A stretch of DNA of 43,846 nucleotides from Pseudomonadota bacterium. GTDB taxonomy: Bacteria; Pseudomonadota; Alphaproteobacteria; UBA2136; UBA6156. Positions within the stretch are counted from its first letter, which is position 1. Every line of letters begins with the position of its first letter. This document shows positions 31,946-39,911 of the stretch, piece after piece. The notes under the pieces are model-generated. The model was not told where the DNA came from. It did not search any database and worked only from the letters and a program-made list of their open reading frames with translations. The stretch lies in the NCBI GenBank assembly GCA_009927255.1, contig RFNJ01000124.1, forward strand, positions 1 to 43,846, in the 5' to 3' direction. A program made the position numbers and the translations under genes.

Positions 31946-32419
31946 CTACTTCTTCCCCACGCCCTTCACCGCCACCTTCTTCACCTCAATTTTCGCCGCA
32001 TCGGGCTTGGGCAAATGCAGGTGCAGCACGCCATCGGCAAAAGTGGCCTCCACCTTGTCGTTCTCCGGCGTAAACGGCAAGGTTAGCACGCGGGCAAAGC
32101 TTCCGCTGCTGCGCTCCGCCACATGCCACGTCTTGTCTTTGCTTTCGCGCACTTCTTCGCGCTGGGCCTTAATGCTCAGCACTTTGCCATCCAGTTGCAC
32201 GTCAATGTCGCTTTCTTTCACCCCGGGCAGATCGGCCTTAATCTCCAGCCCGTCTTTGGTTTCAGCCACATCCAGCCGTGGCGCCAAGGCACCAGCCGCG
32301 CCACCTTCCGCCAACGGAAACCCTCGAGCAAAGGTGTCAAACACTCTCTCAAATTCGCCAAACACATCGGCCAACCCATCATTGCGCCGCATCAGCGGGG
32401 CTACTTGAAACATTCTCAT
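31946..32419 (-). CDS. Hsp20/alpha-crystallin family small heat-shock protein
   Basis: P.LDV.ETKDGLEIKADLPGVKESDIDVQL....L.I.A and R.L.LPF...DKVEA.F.DGVL.L.LPK. Start MRMFQ, with an AGGA SD about 8 nt upstream. Confidence 0.9.
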   Translation of the reverse strand: MRMFQVAPLMRRNDGLADVFGEFERVFDTFARGFPLAEGGAAGALAPRLDVAETKDGLEIKADLPGVKESDIDVQLDGKVLSIKAQREEVRESKDKTWHVAERSSGSFARVLTLPFTPENDKVEATFADGVLHLHLPKPDAAKIEVKKVAVKGVGKK

Positions 32420-32464
32420 CGTCTTATCCTTTCCTTTATGTTCTTCCTCAAGCGCTAATCCCAA

Positions 32465-32491
32465 TTAGCACTCTCATATATATAGTGATAA
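32465..32491. promoter_or_regulatory. CIRCE-like inverted repeat 1 (TTAGCACTC-N9-TAGTGATAA)
   Basis: The left arm is identical to the CIRCE consensus TTAGCACTC. The right arm matches GAGTGCTAA at 7/9. Lies in the hsp20 5' region. Confidence 0.5.
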
Positions 32492-32507
32492 TAAAAATGT
32501 CATTTGT

Positions 32508-32534
32508 CAAGCACTCAAACATATAGAGTGATAA
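32508..32534. promoter_or_regulatory. CIRCE-like inverted repeat 2 (CAAGCACTC-N9-GAGTGATAA)
   Basis: 7/9 and 8/9 matches to the CIRCE half-sites with an exact 9-nt spacer. The left arm overlaps a minus-strand TTGACA. Confidence 0.5.
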
Positions 32535-32758
32535 AATATCTATATAAATCAAATAAAATCAATAATATAAAAATCTACTTCCCCCGCCCCACCCGCACCT
32601 CTGGCGGAAAAGGCACCCCATTATACATCAGCGGCGTCATCAGCCGTCCGCTGGTAAAAACCACCAAAAAAACCACCAAAGCGGCAATCTTTATCATCTC
32701 CATAGCTACTTATGGCCCCCCAGCCCAAAACTCCTAACAGCCACCAATCAAAAACTGG

Positions 32759-35692
32759 CTACTTTAATAAAGCCGCCAAAAACCGCCCCGTATGGCTCGC
32801 CTTATGCCGTGCAATCTGCTCCGGCGTGCCCTCGGCCACCAACTGGCCGCCACCGGTGCCGCCCTCGGGGCCAATGTCCAGCACCCAGTCGGCGGTCTTA
32901 ATCACATCCAGATTATGCTCAATAATAATCATCGTGTTGCCCGCATCCACCAGCCGGTGCAGCACTTTTAGCAACTGGTCAATATCCGCAAAGTGCAGGC
33001 CCGTGGTCGGCTCATCCAAAATATACAGCGTCCGCCCCGTGGCAATCTTCGCCAGCTCTTTCGCCAGCTTCACCCGCTGCGCCTCACCGCCACTCAGCGT
33101 GGTGGCTTGCTGGCCCAACTGAATATAACCAAGCCCCACATCCTCCAGCGTCTTAATATGCTTGGCCAAGCGGGGGATGCCGCTAAAAAACGTATAAGCT
33201 TCGCTCACCGTCATCGCCAGCACATCGGCAATGCTCTTGCCCTTGTAATGTACTTCCAGCGTCTCGCGGTTAAAGCGCCGCCCTTTGCACACTTCGCACG
33301 GCACATACACATCCGGCAAAAAGTGCATTTCCACCTTAATCACGCCGTCACCTTCGCATGCCTCGCAGCGCCCACCTTTCACGTTAAAGCTAAAGCGCCC
33401 CGGCCCATAACCGCGCGTTTTGCTCTCCGGCAACGCCGCAAACCAATCCCTTATCGGCCCATAAATCCCCGTATAAGTCGCGGGGTTGCTGCGCGGCGTC
33501 CGCCCAATGGGGGATTGGTCAATGTTCACCAGCTTATCAATGTGCTCAAGGCCGGTAATATCCTTATGCGCCGCCGCATGCTCTTTGCTGCCATGCAACC
33601 GCGCCGCCAGCGCATTGTGCAGCGTGTCCATCACCAGCGTGCTTTTGCCGCTGCCGGAAACCCCCGTCACGCACGTCAAAACCCCCAACGGAAACCGCGC
33701 CGTCACGTTCTTCAAATTGTTGCCACTCGCGCCATGCACCGCAATCGCCAAGCCATCCTTGGCCTTGCGCCGCTTGGCGGGCACCGCAATCGCCTTTTTG
33801 CCGCTCAAATACTGCCCCGTCAGGCTGTCTTTGGCGGCAATAATGTCCGCAACCTTGCCCTCCGCCACCACGTGGCCACCATGCACACCCGCCTTGGGGC
33901 CCATATCAATCACATGGTCAGCCAACCGAATCGCATCCTCATCATGCTCCACCACCAGCACGGTGTTATCCAAATCGCGCAGCTTGGTCAGTGTCTCCAG
34001 CAGGCGGTGATTATCCCGCTGGTGCAAGCCAATACTCGGCTCATCTAGCACATAAAGCACGCCGGTCAGCCCGCTGCCAATTTGCGATGCCAACCGTATC
34101 CGCTGGCTCTCCCCGCCCGAAAGCGTCCCTGCCGTGCGCGCAAGGCTCAGATAGTTCAGCCCCACATGGTTTAAAAACCCCAACCGCGCATAAATCTCGC
34201 GCAAAATCGGCGCGGCAATTTGCGCCGCATTGCCCTTCAAACCCTTCTGCAAACTTTCCGTAAACGCCAAAGCATCGGTGATGGAGAGCGCACAATAATC
34301 CCGAATATTGCGTGCCTGCTTACCAATCGTCACCGCCAAAGCCGAAGGATTCAACCGCGCCCCATGGCAAGTGGGGCAGGGGGCCGCCGCCCGATACCGA
34401 TTCAAATCCTCCTTGGCATAAGGGTTATCACTCTCATCCCACCGCCGCTTCAAAATATTCAGCACCCCATCAAAAACCTTCAGCGTCTTAAACTGGCTCT
34501 TGCCCCCCTCAAACACAAACTCCATCTTCTCCTCACCGCTGCCATTCAGCAAGCTGTGGCGAACCTTTTCGGGTAGTTTATGCCACGGCGTATCAAGGCT
34601 AAAACCATAATGCCGCGTCAACGCCTTCAGGTAATAAGCCCCCGTCTTATTCAGCTGCGCATTCGGCGTCCCCGGCTTCTCACTCCACGGATGAATCGCC
34701 CCCTGGTTCAACGTCAGCCGCTCATTCGGCACAATCAGTTCGGGGCTAAAATAAATCACCTCACCCAACCCATCACACGCCGCACAGGCGCCAAACGGAC
34801 TATTAAAACTAAACAACCGCGGCTCCAACTGGGTGCTGTGCCCACAGCGCGGGCAGCTATGCTTCTCGCTAAACAACTGCCGCAGTTTAGAAGTCTCTGC
34901 CCCCTCAATCGCCGCCACCTCCGCCAATCCCTCCGCCAACCGCAAGGCGGTGGCAAGGCTATCACTCAGCCGCTGCGCGTTCTCCGGCTTCACCGCCAAG
35001 CGGTCAATCACCAGCGCAATGTTATGCTTCTCATTCTTCTCCAGCTTCGGCGGCGCACTCAGCTCCACCAGCTCGCCATTCACTTCCGCCCGCGTATAAC
35101 CCTGCTGCTGCCACACCGCAAATTCCTTACGATATTCCCCCTTGCGCCCGCGCACCACCGGCGCCAGCACCATCATTTTGGTGCCCGCGGGCCAGGCCAG
35201 CACATGGTCCACCATCTGGCTAATCGTCTGCGCGGTAATTTCCACATCGGGATGGTTCGGGCAATGTGCCGTCCCCGCGTTGGCAAACAGCAAGCGCAAA
35301 TAGTCATAAATTTCGGTAATCGTTCCCACCGTGCTGCGCGGATTTTTGCTGGTGGTCTTCTGCTCAATCGCAATCGCCGGCGCCAAACCCTCAATCCGCT
35401 CCACATCCGGCTTGTTGTTCAGTTCCAAAAATTGCCGGGCGTAGGCCGAAAGACTCTCCACATACCGCCGCTGCCCCTCGGCATAAATCGTGTCAAAAGC
35501 AAGGCTGCTCTTGCCACTGCCCGAAACCCCCGTAATCACCGTCAACGTATGCTTCGGAATATTCAACGAAACATCCCGTAAATTATGCTCTCTTGCCCCC
35601 CGAATCATCAAGTGCGTATTCGGCGTCGGAACAACCGATGAGCTTTTTGCGGAACTTTTTTGAGCAGAGGATAAAGAAACAGAGCGGGCCAT
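32759..35692 (-). CDS. uvrA: Excinuclease ABC subunit A, UvrA (start uncertain: TTG 35728, ATG 35692 or ATG 35608)
   Basis: [43 protein letters not shown], zinc-finger cysteines and a second ABC module. Confidence 0.95.
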
Positions 35693-35740
35693 AGCATGCG
35701 TTGTCGCACGCCATAGCCCGCTCGGCAAGGGGGAATAGGG

Positions 35741-36010
35741 TTATGCTTTGTTGACAATATCTTCCCACCCAACAGGAACTGTTTTTCCCCAAGGACCAAA
35801 GATTGGCTGACCATCCTGATTGACAGAAATCAGGCGGTAATGAGGCGTTGCAGTCATTCCTAGAAAGAAAAGGAGGGATTGCCAAAACGGTAGCCCTTTT
35901 TCCAGCATAGTAGTGTTTTCATCATTGATGGTAACGGCCCAAAGCATAATTCGGGCTACTTTCCAATTCCGGTAGCTTTTGGTCGGATTCCGCAAATAAA
36001 ACGTCGACAT
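35741..36010 (-). CDS. Hypothetical protein, MSTFYL paralog B (89 aa)
   Basis: ATG 36010 is preceded by GGAGG. Shares MSTFYL, T.MLE, YRL, G.W..T.P..W with the ORF at 36552..36866. No family recognised. Confidence 0.6.
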   Translation of the reverse strand: MSTFYLRNPTKSYRNWKVARIMLWAVTINDENTTMLEKGLPFWQSLLFFLGMTATPHYRLISVNQDGQPIFGPWGKTVPVGWEDIVNKA

Positions 36011-36030
36011 GGATTCCTCCAAGGATAAGT

Positions 36031-36079
36031 CTGGCACAATCGCCACCCGTCATGTATCCAATTCTAGGTAAGCCGTCAA
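36031..36079 (-). promoter_or_regulatory. Putative sigma70 promoter plus conserved leader box, cassette B (TTGACG-N17-TACATG-ACGG-GTGGCGATTGTGCC)
   Basis: Read on the minus strand. Same architecture at 36440..36488 and 36891..36938. Confidence 0.45.
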
Positions 36080-36114
36080 TAAAAAAGCCACAGCAACCCG
36101 CAGGTCGCCATGGC
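36080..36114 (-). terminator. Rho-independent terminator after the 3-TM gene
   Basis: Minus strand: GCCATGGCGACC-TGCG-GGTTGCTGTGGC-TTTTTTAT. The stem contains wobble or mismatched pairs. Confidence 0.55.
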
Positions 36115-36138
36115 CATTCAGTAGGAGAAGCTTAAAGC

Positions 36139-36420
36139 TTAGGCATTAAGCCAAGCTAGCATTAGTGCGTACATTAGTATCCAACCTAGTAATAGTAAGG
36201 TAAGAAATTTATTAAGGCTCTTTCGGTTTGCGTGGCCAGTAAGCAAAAGCCCACCCAAACCAGAAAGTATAATCAATTGTCCTACAATAGGAAGTGAAGT
36301 CTTGACGTAGTCCGCAAGATGCTCAGGAGGAATAAAAGACACTATCCCAGCAACACAACCACTCAAAAACCCTGCAACATAGCAAGCAGTCTCTTTCGCT
36401 GATTTCGTAGCCAACGGCAT
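36139..36420 (-). CDS. Hypothetical 3-TM membrane protein (93 aa), low GC
   Basis: Three hydrophobic segments, SD GGAG, own promoter-like region and terminator. No family recognised. Confidence 0.55.
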   Translation of the reverse strand: MPLATKSAKETACYVAGFLSGCVAGIVSFIPPEHLADYVKTSLPIVGQLIILSGLGGLLLTGHANRKSLNKFLTLLLLGWILMYALMLAWLNA

Positions 36421-36439
36421 GGAACGTCTCCAGATGAAT

Positions 36440-36488
36440 CAGGCACAGTCGCCACAGTATTTGTATATAATTCTCCTAATCCGGTCAA
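36440..36488 (-). promoter_or_regulatory. Putative sigma70 promoter plus conserved leader box, cassette M (TTGACC-N17-TACAAA-TACT-GTGGCGACTGTGCC)
   Basis: Read on the minus strand. Aligns along its length with 36031..36079. Confidence 0.45.
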
Positions 36489-36524
36489 CAAAAAAGCCAC
36501 AGCAAACCAAAGGGTCGCTGTGGC
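36489..36524 (-). terminator. Rho-independent terminator after MSTFYL paralog A
   Basis: Minus strand: GCCACAGCGACCC-TTTG-GTTTGCTGTGGC-TTTTTTGTT. Confidence 0.7.
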
Positions 36525-36551
36525 CTATGTTGGGAGGTAAAGGGCAGGGGC

Positions 36552-36866
36552 CTAAGCCGCCGCCGTTACTTCGGTCCACTCTGCAGGAATCGTCGATTGC
36601 CAGCCACCATAATGTACATTGGCATTTGGCTCGCAGGTAAGCAGGCGGTATTGTTTGGTGGTTGCTCCACCACCGCGCCAAATGGTAAGCCAAGCTGAAA
36701 TATCCCGCTCTTCCAGCATCAAAGTAGGCCTCTGGTAGCTGAAGGCAATCGAGCGTAATTCACTATAAGCCTCTTTTTCATCAGTGAAAGTCTTTACCAT
36801 ACTCTGCGGTTCACCATCAGCTGGGGCCGGCACAACATCCGGATCTACCAAGTAAAAGGTCGACAT
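36552..36866 (-). CDS. Hypothetical protein, MSTFYL paralog A (104 aa)
   Basis: ATG 36866 is preceded by GGGAG. Paralogous to 35741..36010. No family recognised. Confidence 0.6.
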   Translation of the reverse strand: MSTFYLVDPDVVPAPADGEPQSMVKTFTDEKEAYSELRSIAFSYQRPTLMLEERDISAWLTIWRGGGATTKQYRLLTCEPNANVHYGGWQSTIPAEWTEVTAAA

Positions 36867-36890
36867 GGGCTACTCCCGTGTTGGGTGTTT

Positions 36891-36938
36891 CACTAAAGTC
36901 GCAACCGCCTGAATATGTGAACCCAATTCCTTCGTCAA
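36891..36938 (-). promoter_or_regulatory. Putative sigma70 promoter plus related leader box, cassette A (TTGACG-N17-TATTCA-GGCG-GTTGCGACTTTAGTG)
   Basis: Read on the minus strand. This is the third copy of the same architecture. Confidence 0.4.
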
Positions 36939-37161
36939 TATCCCCTGCCATCCGTGTACCCGCGCAGCGGTCATGCCGGCGAGGGCCGGTATCCACGAAA
37001 AATCATGAGCCATAGGCGAAGTATGTTATTGAAAAGATAAAGTATGAGTGCATCGAACGAGGTGATAGTTTATTGGTAATGTCAACAACCCCATCTTTTT
37101 TACACCCAATACCCCACCTTAGGGCTTGCCTTGGTGGGGGCCCATAGCCCACATTACAAAG

Positions 37162-39417
37162 GTGATACGCCAGTATGAACTCATCGAAAAAGTCCGCGCC
37201 TACAACCCACGGGCCGATGTCGGGCTCATCAACCGCGCCTATGTTTATAGCATGAAGGCCCACGGCAACCAAAAGCGCGCCAGCGGCCAACCCTACCTCG
37301 TCCACCCCCTCGCCGTGGCAGGGATACTCGCCGAACTCAAAATGGACGACGCCACCATCGCCGTCGGCCTGCTGCACGACACCCTAGAAGATACGCTCAG
37401 CAGCTACGACGAACTCAAAAATCTGTTCGGGGTGGAGGTTGCGGACCTCACCGACGGGGTAACAAAACTCTCCAAAATCAGCTTCGAAGACAAAGCGGTC
37501 GAGCAAGCCGAAAACTTCCGCAAATTGCTCCTCGCCATGAGCAAAGATATCCGCGTGCTGCTGGTCAAGCTGGCGGATAGACTCCACAACATGCGCACCC
37601 TCGCCGCCTTCAGTAAGGAAGAAAAAAAGCGCCGAATTGCTAAAGAAACCCTCGATATCTATGCCCCACTCGCCGATAGAATCGGCCTCCACGTCATCAA
37701 GGCCGAACTCGAAGACTTGGCATTCAAGGTGCTGGAACCTGAAGAATACGCCCTCATCGAATCCCGCATGGCCGAATGGCGCGCCGAAGACCAACTGGTG
37801 CCCCGTGTCATCGCCGTGCTGCAAGAAGAACTGCAAAAGGCAGGGATAAAAGGCGAAGTCAGCGGCCGCGAAAAAGCCGTCTACTCGGTCTACCAAAAAA
37901 TGGTGCGCAAAAGTTTAGCGTTCGACCAACTCACCGACATCATCGCCTACCGCGTGGTCGTCGATAACAAACGCGATTGCTACGAAGTCTTAGGGTTAAT
38001 GCACGACAGGTTCAAAGCCATCCCCGGCCGCTTCAAAGATTACATCAGCGCCCCCAAACCAAACGGCTATCAAAGCCTACATACGAGTGTCATCGGCCCC
38101 TTTGGCAACCGAATGGAGGTACAAATCCGCACCAAAGAAATGCATGAAATAGCCGAAAACGGTGTCGCTGCGCACTGGGTTTATAAGCCACCCAAGGGCG
38201 AAAATGGCAAAACTATCACGCAAAATAATATTGAAACCAGCAAAGAAGGCAGTAAAGATTTAAAACACAGCCCCTACCGCTGGCTGCGCGGCCTGATAGA
38301 ACAGCTACAAGGTGTTGAAGACCCAGAAGAATTTTATGAAAACGCCAAACTGGAATTATTCACCGAAAACGTCTTCGCCTTCACCCCCAAAGGCGATGTC
38401 ATCCAGCTGCCCAAAGGCGCCACCCCGCTCGATTTTGCTTACTCAATCCACAGTAATTTAGGCAACCGCACCGTCTCCGCCAAAGTCAACGGCAGCGTGG
38501 TTCCTCTCCGCCGTATTCTCGAAAATGGTGATATGGTTGAGATAGTTACCGGTGCCCACCAGCATCCCAATCCCGGCTGGAAAGAGCTGGTGGTCAGCAG
38601 CCGCGCCCGCAGCGCCATCAACCGCTACCTGCGCCAGCAAGAGCAAGCCGAACTGGTGCGCCTCGGCCGCGAAATCCTCGAAAAAGCCGCAAGGCGCGAT
38701 GGCTGGAGCTGGGACATCAAAGACGTCCAACATAACCTTAAAAAACTTCCTGGAAATCAATTTGATACGATTGATGACGTCTTCGCCGCCCTCGGCCAAG
38801 GCCGCCTCTTTCCCCGCCAAATCCACGATATCCTCTACCCGCCAAAACCCACCATCACCAGCGAACCCAAGCTCCTCCCCCCCAAAAAATCCACCAAAGA
38901 CAAACTTCGCAACCAACAAACGACTGAACATGCACGCAGAGAAGACAACACCAACAAAGTCGCCATTGAAGGCGGCCTCGCCGGAATGGTGGTCAATTAT
39001 GCCAAATGTTGCAGCCCTTTACCGGGCGAAGACATCGTCGGCATCATCGCCACTGGCAAGGGCGTCAGCGTCCACATGCGCACCTGCCGCAACTTAGAAC
39101 AATTTGCCGACCAACCCGACCGCTGGCTGCCGGTCAGCTGGAGCAAAGCCGCCGAAAATGGCGACTTGCGCCACTTCGTCTGCCGCCTGCGTTTCCATGT
39201 AAGGAATGACACCGGCGCACTCGCCAGCATCACCAACGTCATTGCCAACAGTAATGCCCAAATCATTGAAATTGCAACAGAAAACCGCAATGCCGATAGC
39301 ATGACCATCCGCTGCGAAATGGAAATCACCAACAAAAACCACCTGAATCGCTTGATCCAACAGCTCTCGGGCCTTAAGGTCATGCTCAGCGTGGAAAAAA
39401 TTTACGGCTGGAATTAG
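37162..39417 (+). CDS. spoT: Bifunctional (p)ppGpp synthetase/hydrolase, RelA/SpoT homolog
   Basis: The GTG at 37162 gives (M)IRQYELIEKV. HD domain (HGNQKRASGQPYLVHPL), synthetase domain (YRVVVD, GYQSLHT), TGS and ACT regions. Confidence 0.95.
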   Translation: MIRQYELIEKVRAYNPRADVGLINRAYVYSMKAHGNQKRASGQPYLVHPLAVAGILAELKMDDATIAVGLLHDTLEDTLSSYDELKNLFGVEVADLTDGVTKLSKISFEDKAVEQAENFRKLLLAMSKDIRVLLVKLADRLHNMRTLAAFSKEEKKRRIAKETLDIYAPLADRIGLHVIKAELEDLAFKVLEPEEYALIESRMAEWRAEDQLVPRVIAVLQEELQKAGIKGEVSGREKAVYSVYQKMVRKSLAFDQLTDIIAYRVVVDNKRDCYEVLGLMHDRFKAIPGRFKDYISAPKPNGYQSLHTSVIGPFGNRMEVQIRTKEMHEIAENGVAAHWVYKPPKGENGKTITQNNIETSKEGSKDLKHSPYRWLRGLIEQLQGVEDPEEFYENAKLELFTENVFAFTPKGDVIQLPKGATPLDFAYSIHSNLGNRTVSAKVNGSVVPLRRILENGDMVEIVTGAHQHPNPGWKELVVSSRARSAINRYLRQQEQAELVRLGREILEKAARRDGWSWDIKDVQHNLKKLPGNQFDTIDDVFAALGQGRLFPRQIHDILYPPKPTITSEPKLLPPKKSTKDKLRNQQTTEHARREDNTNKVAIEGGLAGMVVNYAKCCSPLPGEDIVGIIATGKGVSVHMRTCRNLEQFADQPDRWLPVSWSKAAENGDLRHFVCRLRFHVRNDTGALASITNVIANSNAQIIEIATENRNADSMTIRCEMEITNKNHLNRLIQQLSGLKVMLSVEKIYGWN

Positions 39418-39422
39418 GGAGA

Positions 39423-39911
39423 ATGGTGCGGGTGAATTTAAAAAATTTCTGGCAAAAAACCCGCGAAAAGTTAAAGGACGAAGCACGTCACCCTCATAAG
39501 GTCGCACTTGGCGCTGCGGTAGGAGTGGGAGTTAGCTTCATTCCACTACCAGGTATGGGCGCTATTATGGCATTAGCAGTAGCATGGTTGGTACGCGGCA
39601 GTATTCCTGCAGCCTTGGTGTCACAAGTAATTGGAAATCCATGGACATTCCCTTTCATTTGGGCTGCCAGTTTAGCAGTAGGTAAAATTGTTTTGCCCGT
39701 ACAAGAAGGGGTTAACCTAGTTGCCTTAATGAATAATCTAACATGGCAGTTTTTTATCGATAATCGCCAAGATTTATTAATGAATATATTAGTCCCCATG
39801 GGTCTTGGCGGTCTTATTTTGGGCTTTATTTTTGCTCTACTTACCTATGCAGTTGTATTGTGGGAACTTCGCCGCTGGCTGATTAAACACGGGCAGGAGG
39901 CCCAAGGCTAA
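39423..39911 (+). CDS. DUF2062-domain membrane protein
   Basis: SD AGGGAG. P.KVALGAAVGVGVSFIPLPG....LAVA......IPAAL.SQV.GNPWTFPFIW pattern. Confidence 0.7.
   Translation: MVRVNLKNFWQKTREKLKDEARHPHKVALGAAVGVGVSFIPLPGMGAIMALAVAWLVRGSIPAALVSQVIGNPWTFPFIWAASLAVGKIVLPVQEGVNLVALMNNLTWQFFIDNRQDLLMNILVPMGLGGLILGFIFALLTYAVVLWELRRWLIKHGQEAQG

Follow-up and report, generated by a model that had tools for sequence, protein, structure and literature searches.

Between uvrA and spoT of an uncultured freshwater alphaproteobacterium, on contig RFNJ01000124.1, lies an islet of three short genes on the minus strand (35741-36938), here called A, B and C, which we read, with a probability of about 0.55, as a set of moron-like orphan cassettes that were acquired horizontally and are transcribed independently of one another. 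The whole stretch of DNA that was analysed, 43,846 nt (43.8 kb) of this contig, is termed the window. A preliminary description, made from the letters of the window alone, had placed three short genes here, and the listing of open reading frames (ORFs) in the window returns A, B and C on the minus strand at exactly the positions it gave (Table 1). Its naming of the flanking genes, uvrA on the minus and spoT on the plus strand, is likewise borne out, both by the Pfam labels on identical metagenome contigs and by tblastn to related genomes.

The proteins encoded by the islet seem to have no relatives. Each of them is a singleton among 5.8 billion proteins, B having been covered by the word-indexed search only, and none gives a significant match in Pfam, NCBIfam, PHROGs or PADLOC. 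The exhaustive HMMER search over 1.84 billion cluster representatives, made with the A/C profile only, recovers nothing but A and C themselves, plus two marginal matches to proteins with fibronectin type III (FN3)-like repeats. Nothing was found in a pattern scan of viral contigs or in metagenome contigs searched with the A/C profile; tblastn of the islet proteins against phage records (50,697) and plasmid records gave no match, nor did PDB sequences even at E <= 10, nor Rfam at a permissive threshold. Among the matches listed from a metagenome scan anchored on the UvrA N-terminus, relatives are 58-68% identical, which is no closer than the matches found in genomes. The preliminary description could place the three proteins in no recognised family and had proposed to look for such a family in other genomes; no family was found for any of them, and protein, profile and tblastn searches returned no homolog. 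As far as these searches reach, with B covered as stated, the islet proteins appear to have no detectable homolog outside one species-level population.

The same picture emerges from the locus itself. The six nearest genomes among 185,579 species representatives (L010-L015) are uncultured alphaproteobacterial metagenome-assembled genomes (MAGs), whose SpoT and UvrA are 74-76% and 72-80% identical, respectively, to those of the window. In 6/6 of them uvrA and spoT are divergent neighbours. The spacer between the two genes is near-empty in L012 and L014 (roughly 110-160 bp), measures about 500-600 bp with one small ORF in L010 (9506-9814) and about 1.2-1.3 kb with two small ORFs each in L011 (584-1481), L013 (2678-3691) and L015 (8781-9874). 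These junction ORFs encode 102-163 aa with signal-peptide-like N-termini, belong to no Pfam family and run on the spoT strand, opposite to the islet genes; those of L013 and L015 are weakly related to each other (E 2e-5 and 8e-4). No trace of A, B or C is found at the uvrA-spoT loci of the relatives, even by tblastn. An ancestry of the islet as antisense or pseudogene remnant of the relatives' junction ORFs was also considered and rejected, no trace of those ORFs being present in the window. Homology to the relatives stops at about 35712-35732 on the uvrA side and restarts at about 37090-37100 on the spoT side, leaving some 1.35-1.4 kb of DNA, roughly from 35712/35732 to 37090, that is specific to this organism. 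Judged from these genomes, the uvrA-spoT junction is a hot spot whose orphan content changes from lineage to lineage. The preliminary description had proposed an accessory module inserted between housekeeping genes; this is supported, as a lineage-restricted insertion, by six relatives that hold either an empty spacer or unrelated orphan ORFs, and the comparison of junctions shows no core synteny of the islet among those six. Within the species the islet varies little: nine contigs from different public samples, one of them labelled freshwater metagenome, carry it in identical form apart from scaffold Ns, and of the contigs retrieved via the exact SpoT protein, that is, not selected for A, 3/3 contain it. 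The sampled population appears to be fixed for the islet.

A and C are old paralogs. Both proteins start with MSTFYL, the feature from which their paralogy had first been read, and they align from end to end with 25% identity (E 5e-9), which confirms it. When the two genes are compared in all-frame translations, the pair of ORF frames scores best (36.6 bits), two in-register off-frames reach 25 bits and the others remain lower; the similarity is thus best kept at the protein level in the ORF frame, and A and C are collinear homologs. Their nucleotide similarity is nearly gone (local score z = 4.6), the exceptions being the ribosome-binding region and the first 14 coding bases, of which 13 agree. 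Since protein and nucleotide similarity both are near saturation, the duplication must be old, and the phrase "recently duplicated" of the preliminary description does not hold for this pair; it can be kept only for the ~100-nt intergenic block around B, which was copied moderately recently or homogenised.

The structure prediction and Foldseek search suggested at that stage leave C without a significant neighbour, the model of A being poor. An AlphaFold2 model of C built from two sequences is of fair quality (predicted local distance difference test, pLDDT, 80.6; predicted template modelling score, pTM, 0.69), with the topology beta-beta-alpha-beta-alpha-beta-beta-alpha. Foldseek returns nothing at E <= 0.001 for this model in the PDB (best E 0.48, template modelling score, TM, about 0.3) or among the viral models of BFVD, where the best matches are uncharacterised phage proteins of 81-92 aa (E 0.09-0.24, TM about 0.5), to be taken as a hint only. 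The two marginal matches of the A/C profile (E 1e-4 and 5e-4, values summed over repeats) are proteins of FN3-like repeats with a T-x-Y-R-L motif. The C-terminal thirds of A (36552-36650) and C (35741-35840) contain the motif T-x-Y-R-L-(L/I)...G-x-W-x-x-T-(I/V)-P, which is reminiscent of the F-G hairpin in FN3-like repeats and could be a beta-hairpin motif that arose by convergence. A and C as fibronectin type III proteins were considered and dismissed: no Pfam fn3 match was obtained, no FN3 structure is among the Foldseek matches and the model of C has three helices, which together rule out membership of this fold.

B is of a different kind. The three-segment membrane protein announced in the preliminary description is supported by three hydrophobic peaks of membrane-spanning length, at residues about 13-30, 43-61 and 72-92. 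That B could be a frame-shifted or diverged copy of A or C was tried and discarded, no similarity to either being found in any frame. It should also be noted that gene callers treat identical DNA differently: B is skipped on the longer contigs (L001-L004), yet called on the short ones (L005-L008), an omission which is probably caused by its atypical codon usage, with a GC content at third codon positions (GC3) of 0.35.

The drop in GC content that had been noticed over the islet is real, with 0.43-0.51 in the islet and drops to 0.42-0.46, against 0.55-0.62 in the flanking genes. GC3 amounts to 0.50 in A, 0.35 in B and 0.44 in C, compared with 0.67 +/- 0.07 (minimum 0.53) in the host genes of the window, and the codon scores of all three genes are best in the annotated frame out of six, yet below the host norm. 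For B the values at the three codon positions (GC1/GC2/GC3) are 0.51/0.41/0.35, which, on compositional grounds, is how an established gene that comes from a genome of lower GC would look. This foreign GC and GC3 pattern favours a horizontal acquisition from an unsampled gene pool. GC content also dips elsewhere in the window, to 0.34 in the hsp20-uvrA spacer (32400-32700) and to 0.38-0.40 inside a DUF2062 gene (39600-39900), so that low GC alone does not single out the islet.

Composition and locus also bear on a native origin, in which the genes would have arisen in place in the uvrA-spoT spacer, de novo or by extreme divergence, the unit having then been tandemly duplicated with no horizontal transfer. 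The junction would suit this, being a hot spot where each related lineage has different orphan ORFs or none, and so would the GC content of the islet (0.43-0.51), close to that of the empty spacers of the relatives (0.44-0.48), the lack of any homolog or mobile-element mark in the searches, and the argument made for many species-specific orphans that they are native (PMC11293555). A compact, confidently modelled C and a B with three regular membrane-length segments are, however, unusual for young de novo products, and the A/C family is old by its 25% identity, yet has left no trace, tblastn included, in relatives at 74-80% core identity. With the position-specific GC values of B adding to this, we hold a native origin to be unlikely and retain a horizontal acquisition of the cassettes as the preferred reading.

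The second part of this reading, independent transcription, concerns the DNA between the genes. Upstream of each gene the window contains TTGAC(G/C), 17 nt and TA, followed by a short box and a strong Shine-Dalgarno (SD) sequence (GGGAG, GGAG and GGAGG, 5-7 nt before the ATG of A, B and C, respectively), all as previously described. The pattern TTGAC(G/C)-N17-TAY occurs three times on both strands of the 43.8 kb against 0.58 expected, every time equivalently upstream of A, B or C, and the core together with the box, at <=2 mismatches, is found at the same three sites alone, where 0.01 would be expected; a search for further box copies within the window accordingly gives exactly three sites. 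We infer promoter activity at all three.

The preliminary description had spoken of a triplicated promoter and leader. For B and C this stands: their upstream blocks align over about 100 nt, with 72% identity over 81 ungapped nt and a local score of 41 against 9.1 +/- 1.5 for dinucleotide shuffles (z = 21). A comparison of the leaders with shuffled controls had been set beforehand as a check on the claim; the B/C pair far exceeds its controls, and the region upstream of A aligns with those of B and C no better than shuffled sequences do (z = 1.0 and -0.1), so that by formal alignment the triplication shrinks to a duplication. A matches as a spaced pattern only. At the same distance from its ATG, its site agrees with 17/24 positions of a pattern that was derived solely from B and C, a score that only four other positions among 87,700 attain and of which about 0.012 would be expected in the 260-nt region upstream of A. 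What lies upstream of A is probably a far older copy of the B/C control unit, which agrees with the age of the A/C split. No significant RNA structure is found in the leaders (z -0.2 to +1.1 against shuffles). The box as an RNA element was thereby rejected, as was its pairing with the 5' arms of the terminators, in a 5'-3' interaction or antitermination, which is no better than in shuffles; taken together, this makes the box, if functional, more likely a protein-binding site than an RNA element. The shared box could plausibly serve to co-regulate A, B and C.

Each of the three genes is followed by a hairpin. The twin terminators after A and B that had been described do fold as such (Table 1; z about -4). 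The last cassette had been thought to have no terminator and to read through into uvrA, and here the outcome is different: 17 nt past the stop codon of C starts a hairpin with a 19-bp stem (-39.2 kcal/mol, z -8.3) and the tail TGTTTCTTTA, which is likely to act as terminator and insulator of cassette C. In all three cases the gene-sense strand folds more stably than the antisense strand (-38.8 vs -26.5 kcal/mol for the hairpin after C, -22.9 vs -11.2 and -20.5 vs -17.9 kcal/mol for the other two), because the differences between copies keep G-U pairs, and such a bias is to be expected of hairpins acting as RNA in the sense of the genes.

The position of the third hairpin is best understood from the start of uvrA. 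In the six relatives UvrA starts with M(S/P)K... and continues through ...TPTSHLIIKGAREHNL, and the counterpart in the window is the ATG at 35692 (MARSVSL...), which is most likely the uvrA start (977 aa), rather than the TTG at 35728 or the positions 35608 or 35566 chosen by gene callers. With this start, 48 nt separate the end of C from uvrA, whose ATG falls within the 3' arm of the hairpin. Directly upstream of uvrA, 6/6 relatives share the block cTTCCnn-N17-AAYAAA-N6-7-ATG without an SD, the lack of which suggests a leaderless mRNA. Embedded in this block is an imperfect palindrome of about 20 bp, TTTGWT-N8-AWCAAA, which ends 6-7 nt before the ATG and occurs in one copy per ~22-kb locus; the block could represent a leaderless promoter with an overlapping operator, and the palindrome possibly is a lineage-specific SOS box. 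In the window the promoter geometry is kept, the left half of the palindrome is lost and the sequence replacing it creates the long hairpin; uvrA thus seems to retain a promoter geometry of its own. A C transcript would hold both arms of the hairpin, a transcript from the uvrA promoter the 3' arm only, which makes read-through into uvrA unlikely: a strong hairpin with a T-rich tail separates C from uvrA and at the same time engulfs the probable start codon at 35692.

The regularity of these units also speaks to the question whether the ORFs are translated at all. They could be chance open frames in non-coding RNAs or in repeated intergenic DNA, such as a terminator/promoter repeat element, and their codon-usage scores below the typical host range, the skipping of B on long contigs and the lack of homologs for a selection test, the nine contigs being identical, would all agree with that. 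Each ORF, on the other hand, fills the space from a well-spaced strong SD to a terminator, in all three the annotated frame outscores the other five, the A-C similarity is strongest as protein in that frame, C has a confident fold and B three hydrophobic segments, and neither an Rfam match nor a significant leader structure was obtained. We regard untranslated ORFs as very improbable.

On the preferred reading, of acquired cassettes, the islet would have entered, only in this species, a fast-changing spacer between divergent housekeeping genes, as three autonomous transcription units of one gene each, all on the uvrA strand. The promoter of each unit would be of the sigma-70 type, its -35 (TTGAC) close to consensus and its -10 weak, and each transcript would have the shared 9-14-nt box near its predicted start, a strong SD and an intrinsic terminator at its end. 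A (acidic) and C (basic) would be paralogs that split long ago within a new family of soluble alpha/beta proteins, and B a small three-segment membrane protein unrelated to them. Their composition (GC1 > GC2 >= GC3) would point to a donor of about 42-50% GC, compared with a host of 56% GC and GC3 0.67, and mobile-element or phage-type accessory genes are the most plausible source. The ~100-nt terminator-promoter-leader block flanking B may later have been duplicated or homogenised by recombination, by which B and C would have come to share almost the same control region, and the box is most simply seen as a common protein-binding site co-regulating the three genes. The third terminator, built partly from the first codons of uvrA, should stop C transcripts; uvrA may be transcribed from its own retained, probably leaderless promoter inside the hairpin and would so escape termination.

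Several observations weigh against this reading. No plasmid, phage, integrase or tRNA signature was found in or near the islet: the window has no tRNA, the neighbouring genes within about 6 kb include no integrase and no phage gene is nearby; a mobile-element origin is therefore deduced from composition alone, and the GC content of the islet, near that of the relatives' empty spacers, fits a native origin equally well. The promoters, transcript starts and terminators of the islet are consensus matches only; the -10 hexamers (TATTCA, TACAAA and TACATG) all are without the usual final T, and a generic promoter scanner calls none of the three sites. Gene B is rejected by gene callers on long contigs, the AlphaFold2 model of A (pLDDT 50) is too poor for a structure search, and as to function A, B and C are linked by nothing but adjacency and the shared control region.

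With regard to function, the analogy with moron products makes an accessory role at the membrane (exclusion, immunity or envelope stress) the most likely class, with B as the partner or target of A and C; confidence in this proposal is low. A dedicated toxin-antitoxin, holin-like or bacteriocin-immunity module, with B membrane-damaging or protective and A and C as soluble partners, would account for three small proteins under a common control region, with a membrane protein flanked by two soluble paralogs of opposite charge, and the weak resemblance of C to uncharacterised 81-92 aa phage proteins (TM about 0.5, E 0.09-0.24) could be added to this. The islet genes, however, match nothing in PADLOC, Pfam, PHROGs or NCBIfam and form separate units with terminators between them rather than an operon; B is without a charged C-terminal tail, no lysin is nearby, and no secretion leader, processing or export gene is present. 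Such a dedicated module seems improbable. A joint claim would go further, namely that A, B and C constitute an unseen functional module, in which the oppositely charged paralogs act on or with B and one regulator binds the GTGGCGAYTGTGCC box, for phage exclusion or envelope-stress protection, or else that the islet documents, as few cases do, the birth of bacterial genes and their tandem amplification in a hypervariable spacer between two core genes; taken as a whole, we would give this claim little credence as well.

Table 1 Positions of the islet genes, of their candidate control elements and of related features; positions refer to the window unless a genome is named
Feature	Position	Strand	Description
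Gene A	36552-36866	minus	104 aa, soluble, acidic (isoelectric point, pI, 4.6), starts MSTFYL, SD GGGAG 6 nt upstream; orphan
Gene B	36139-36420	minus	93 aa, basic (pI 9.1), three hydrophobic segments, GC3 0.35; orphan
Gene C	35741-36010	minus	89 aa, soluble, basic (pI 9.5), starts MSTFYL; orphan
Cassette A site (putative promoter and box)	36891-36938	minus	TTGACG 36938-36933, 17 nt, TATTCA 36915-36910, 4 nt, box GTTGCGACTTTAGTG 36905-36891
Terminator after A (predicted)	36490-36524	minus	stem GGCCACAGCGACC / GGTTTGCTGTGGC, then T6; -20.9 kcal/mol, z -3.9
Direct repeat copy 1	36421-36524	minus	predicted terminator, promoter and leader upstream of B
Copy 1 elements		minus	-35 TTGACC 36488-36483, TACAAA 36465-36460, box GTGGCGACTGTGCC 36455-36442, SD GGAG
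Terminator after B (predicted)	36115-36086 + T6	minus	-24.3 kcal/mol, z -4.2
Direct repeat copy 2	36011-36114	minus	predicted terminator after B, then promoter and leader of C
Copy 2 elements		minus	-35 TTGACG 36079-36074, TACATG 36056-36051, box GTGGCGATTGTGCC 36046-36033, SD GGAGG
Hairpin after C	35723-35672 including tail (hairpin 35723-35682)	minus	GAGCGGGCTATGGCGTGCG-ACAA-CGCATGCTATGGCCCGCTC, then TGTTTCTTTA
Probable uvrA promoter and start	35692-35731	minus	TTGCCG 35731-35726, N17, GACAAC, N7, ATG 35692
uvrA palindrome	L010 9398-9417; L011 381-400; L012 9848-9867; L014 9862-9881; L015 8661-8680; window equivalent 35699-35722
Window-specific spacer	36939-37090		between the cassette A promoter site and the conserved spoT upstream region

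Further housekeeping neighbours of the islet are acpS, nusA and hsp20. In the spacer between cassette A and spoT (36939-37090) no recognisable feature was seen, and 12-nt inverted repeats flanking the islet were dismissed, about 2.5 such pairs being expected by chance according to our own estimate. The start of spoT is most likely the GTG at 37162 (VIRQYEL, in the relatives MIRQYEL), giving 751 aa, and not the TTG at 37126. Upstream of it, a block of the type cTTGt-N17-(G/C)CCACAAT, followed by a very short leader, is kept in the window (37100-37160) and in L010-L015, and probably represents the spoT core promoter of the lineage; an ACACCCC block is found about 60-80 nt upstream of the spoT start in the same genomes. 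Two of the MAG records, L012 (VAFM01000001.1, titled 'Blastochloris viridis') and L013 (QFOU01000048.1, titled 'Pseudomonas fluorescens'), are 74-80% identical to the window in SpoT and UvrA and have their synteny in common with the window and the other alphaproteobacterial MAGs; their species labels look wrong.

What the islet offers is a clean and well-bounded case of orphan genes equipped with a full set of expression signals, situated in a spacer whose orphan content varies with the lineage, and the uvrA-spoT junction of this alphaproteobacterial group should be usable as a natural system for studying the origin of bacterial orphan genes. It also illustrates how the control region of a core repair gene can be remodelled when DNA is inserted, one half of the conserved uvrA palindrome having been replaced by a hairpin that contains the start codon, and, with the omission of B, how small foreign genes drop out of annotations. 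At present the islet is mainly of interest to researchers of orphan genes and to annotators of small proteins, and no new mechanism is demonstrated.

Compared with known systems, the islet differs from an integron cassette array in that each of its cassettes has a promoter-like site of its own, whereas integron cassettes are promoterless and carry attC; its inter-cassette hairpins are G+C-rich stems with T-runs, no GTTRRRY or RYYYAAC cores were seen on reading, and no integrase is encoded within about 6 kb. Type II toxin-antitoxin pairs are set apart by the terminators between the islet genes and by the lack of any toxin or antitoxin match in Pfam, NCBIfam or PADLOC. Unlike a class I (three-segment) holin, B ends in the hydrophobic ...MLAWLNA without a charged tail, has no significant holin match in PHROGs or Pfam and no lysin nearby. 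With fibronectin type III domains A and C share a C-terminal T-x-Y-R-L/V ... G-x-W/G ... T/S that resembles the F-G hairpin, but the model of C has three helices and is not an all-beta sandwich.

The closest likenesses are to phage morons and to species-specific orphans. Morons are autonomous accessory units of phage genomes, each with a promoter and a terminator of its own and with a deviating GC content, gene 15 of HK97 being an example (PMC3594210). Like them, the islet genes seem to have each its own promoter-like site and intrinsic terminator, deviate from the host genes in GC and GC3, stand out, in a comparison of related genomes, as additional DNA between conserved neighbours, and encode small products, one of them a small membrane protein. 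Unlike them, the islet is not situated in a phage or prophage, its neighbours being housekeeping genes and phage similarity at the sequence level being absent, and it consists of three tandem units that have a control block in common, a trait by which morons are not defined. Species-specific orphan genes are common in bacteria (PMC11293555), and their GC content usually matches that of the host, except for a virus-like subset (PMC11293555, PMC12315717). The islet resembles them (PMC11293555, PMC12315717) in having no homolog outside one species-level population, in its short proteins and non-optimal codons, and in its position at a variable locus between conserved genes; it differs in being internally duplicated and architecturally regular, with a pair of paralogs, and in a GC content below that of the host genes. 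The islet is a species-specific orphan gene cluster, and as such belongs to a familiar category rather than to a new kind of system.

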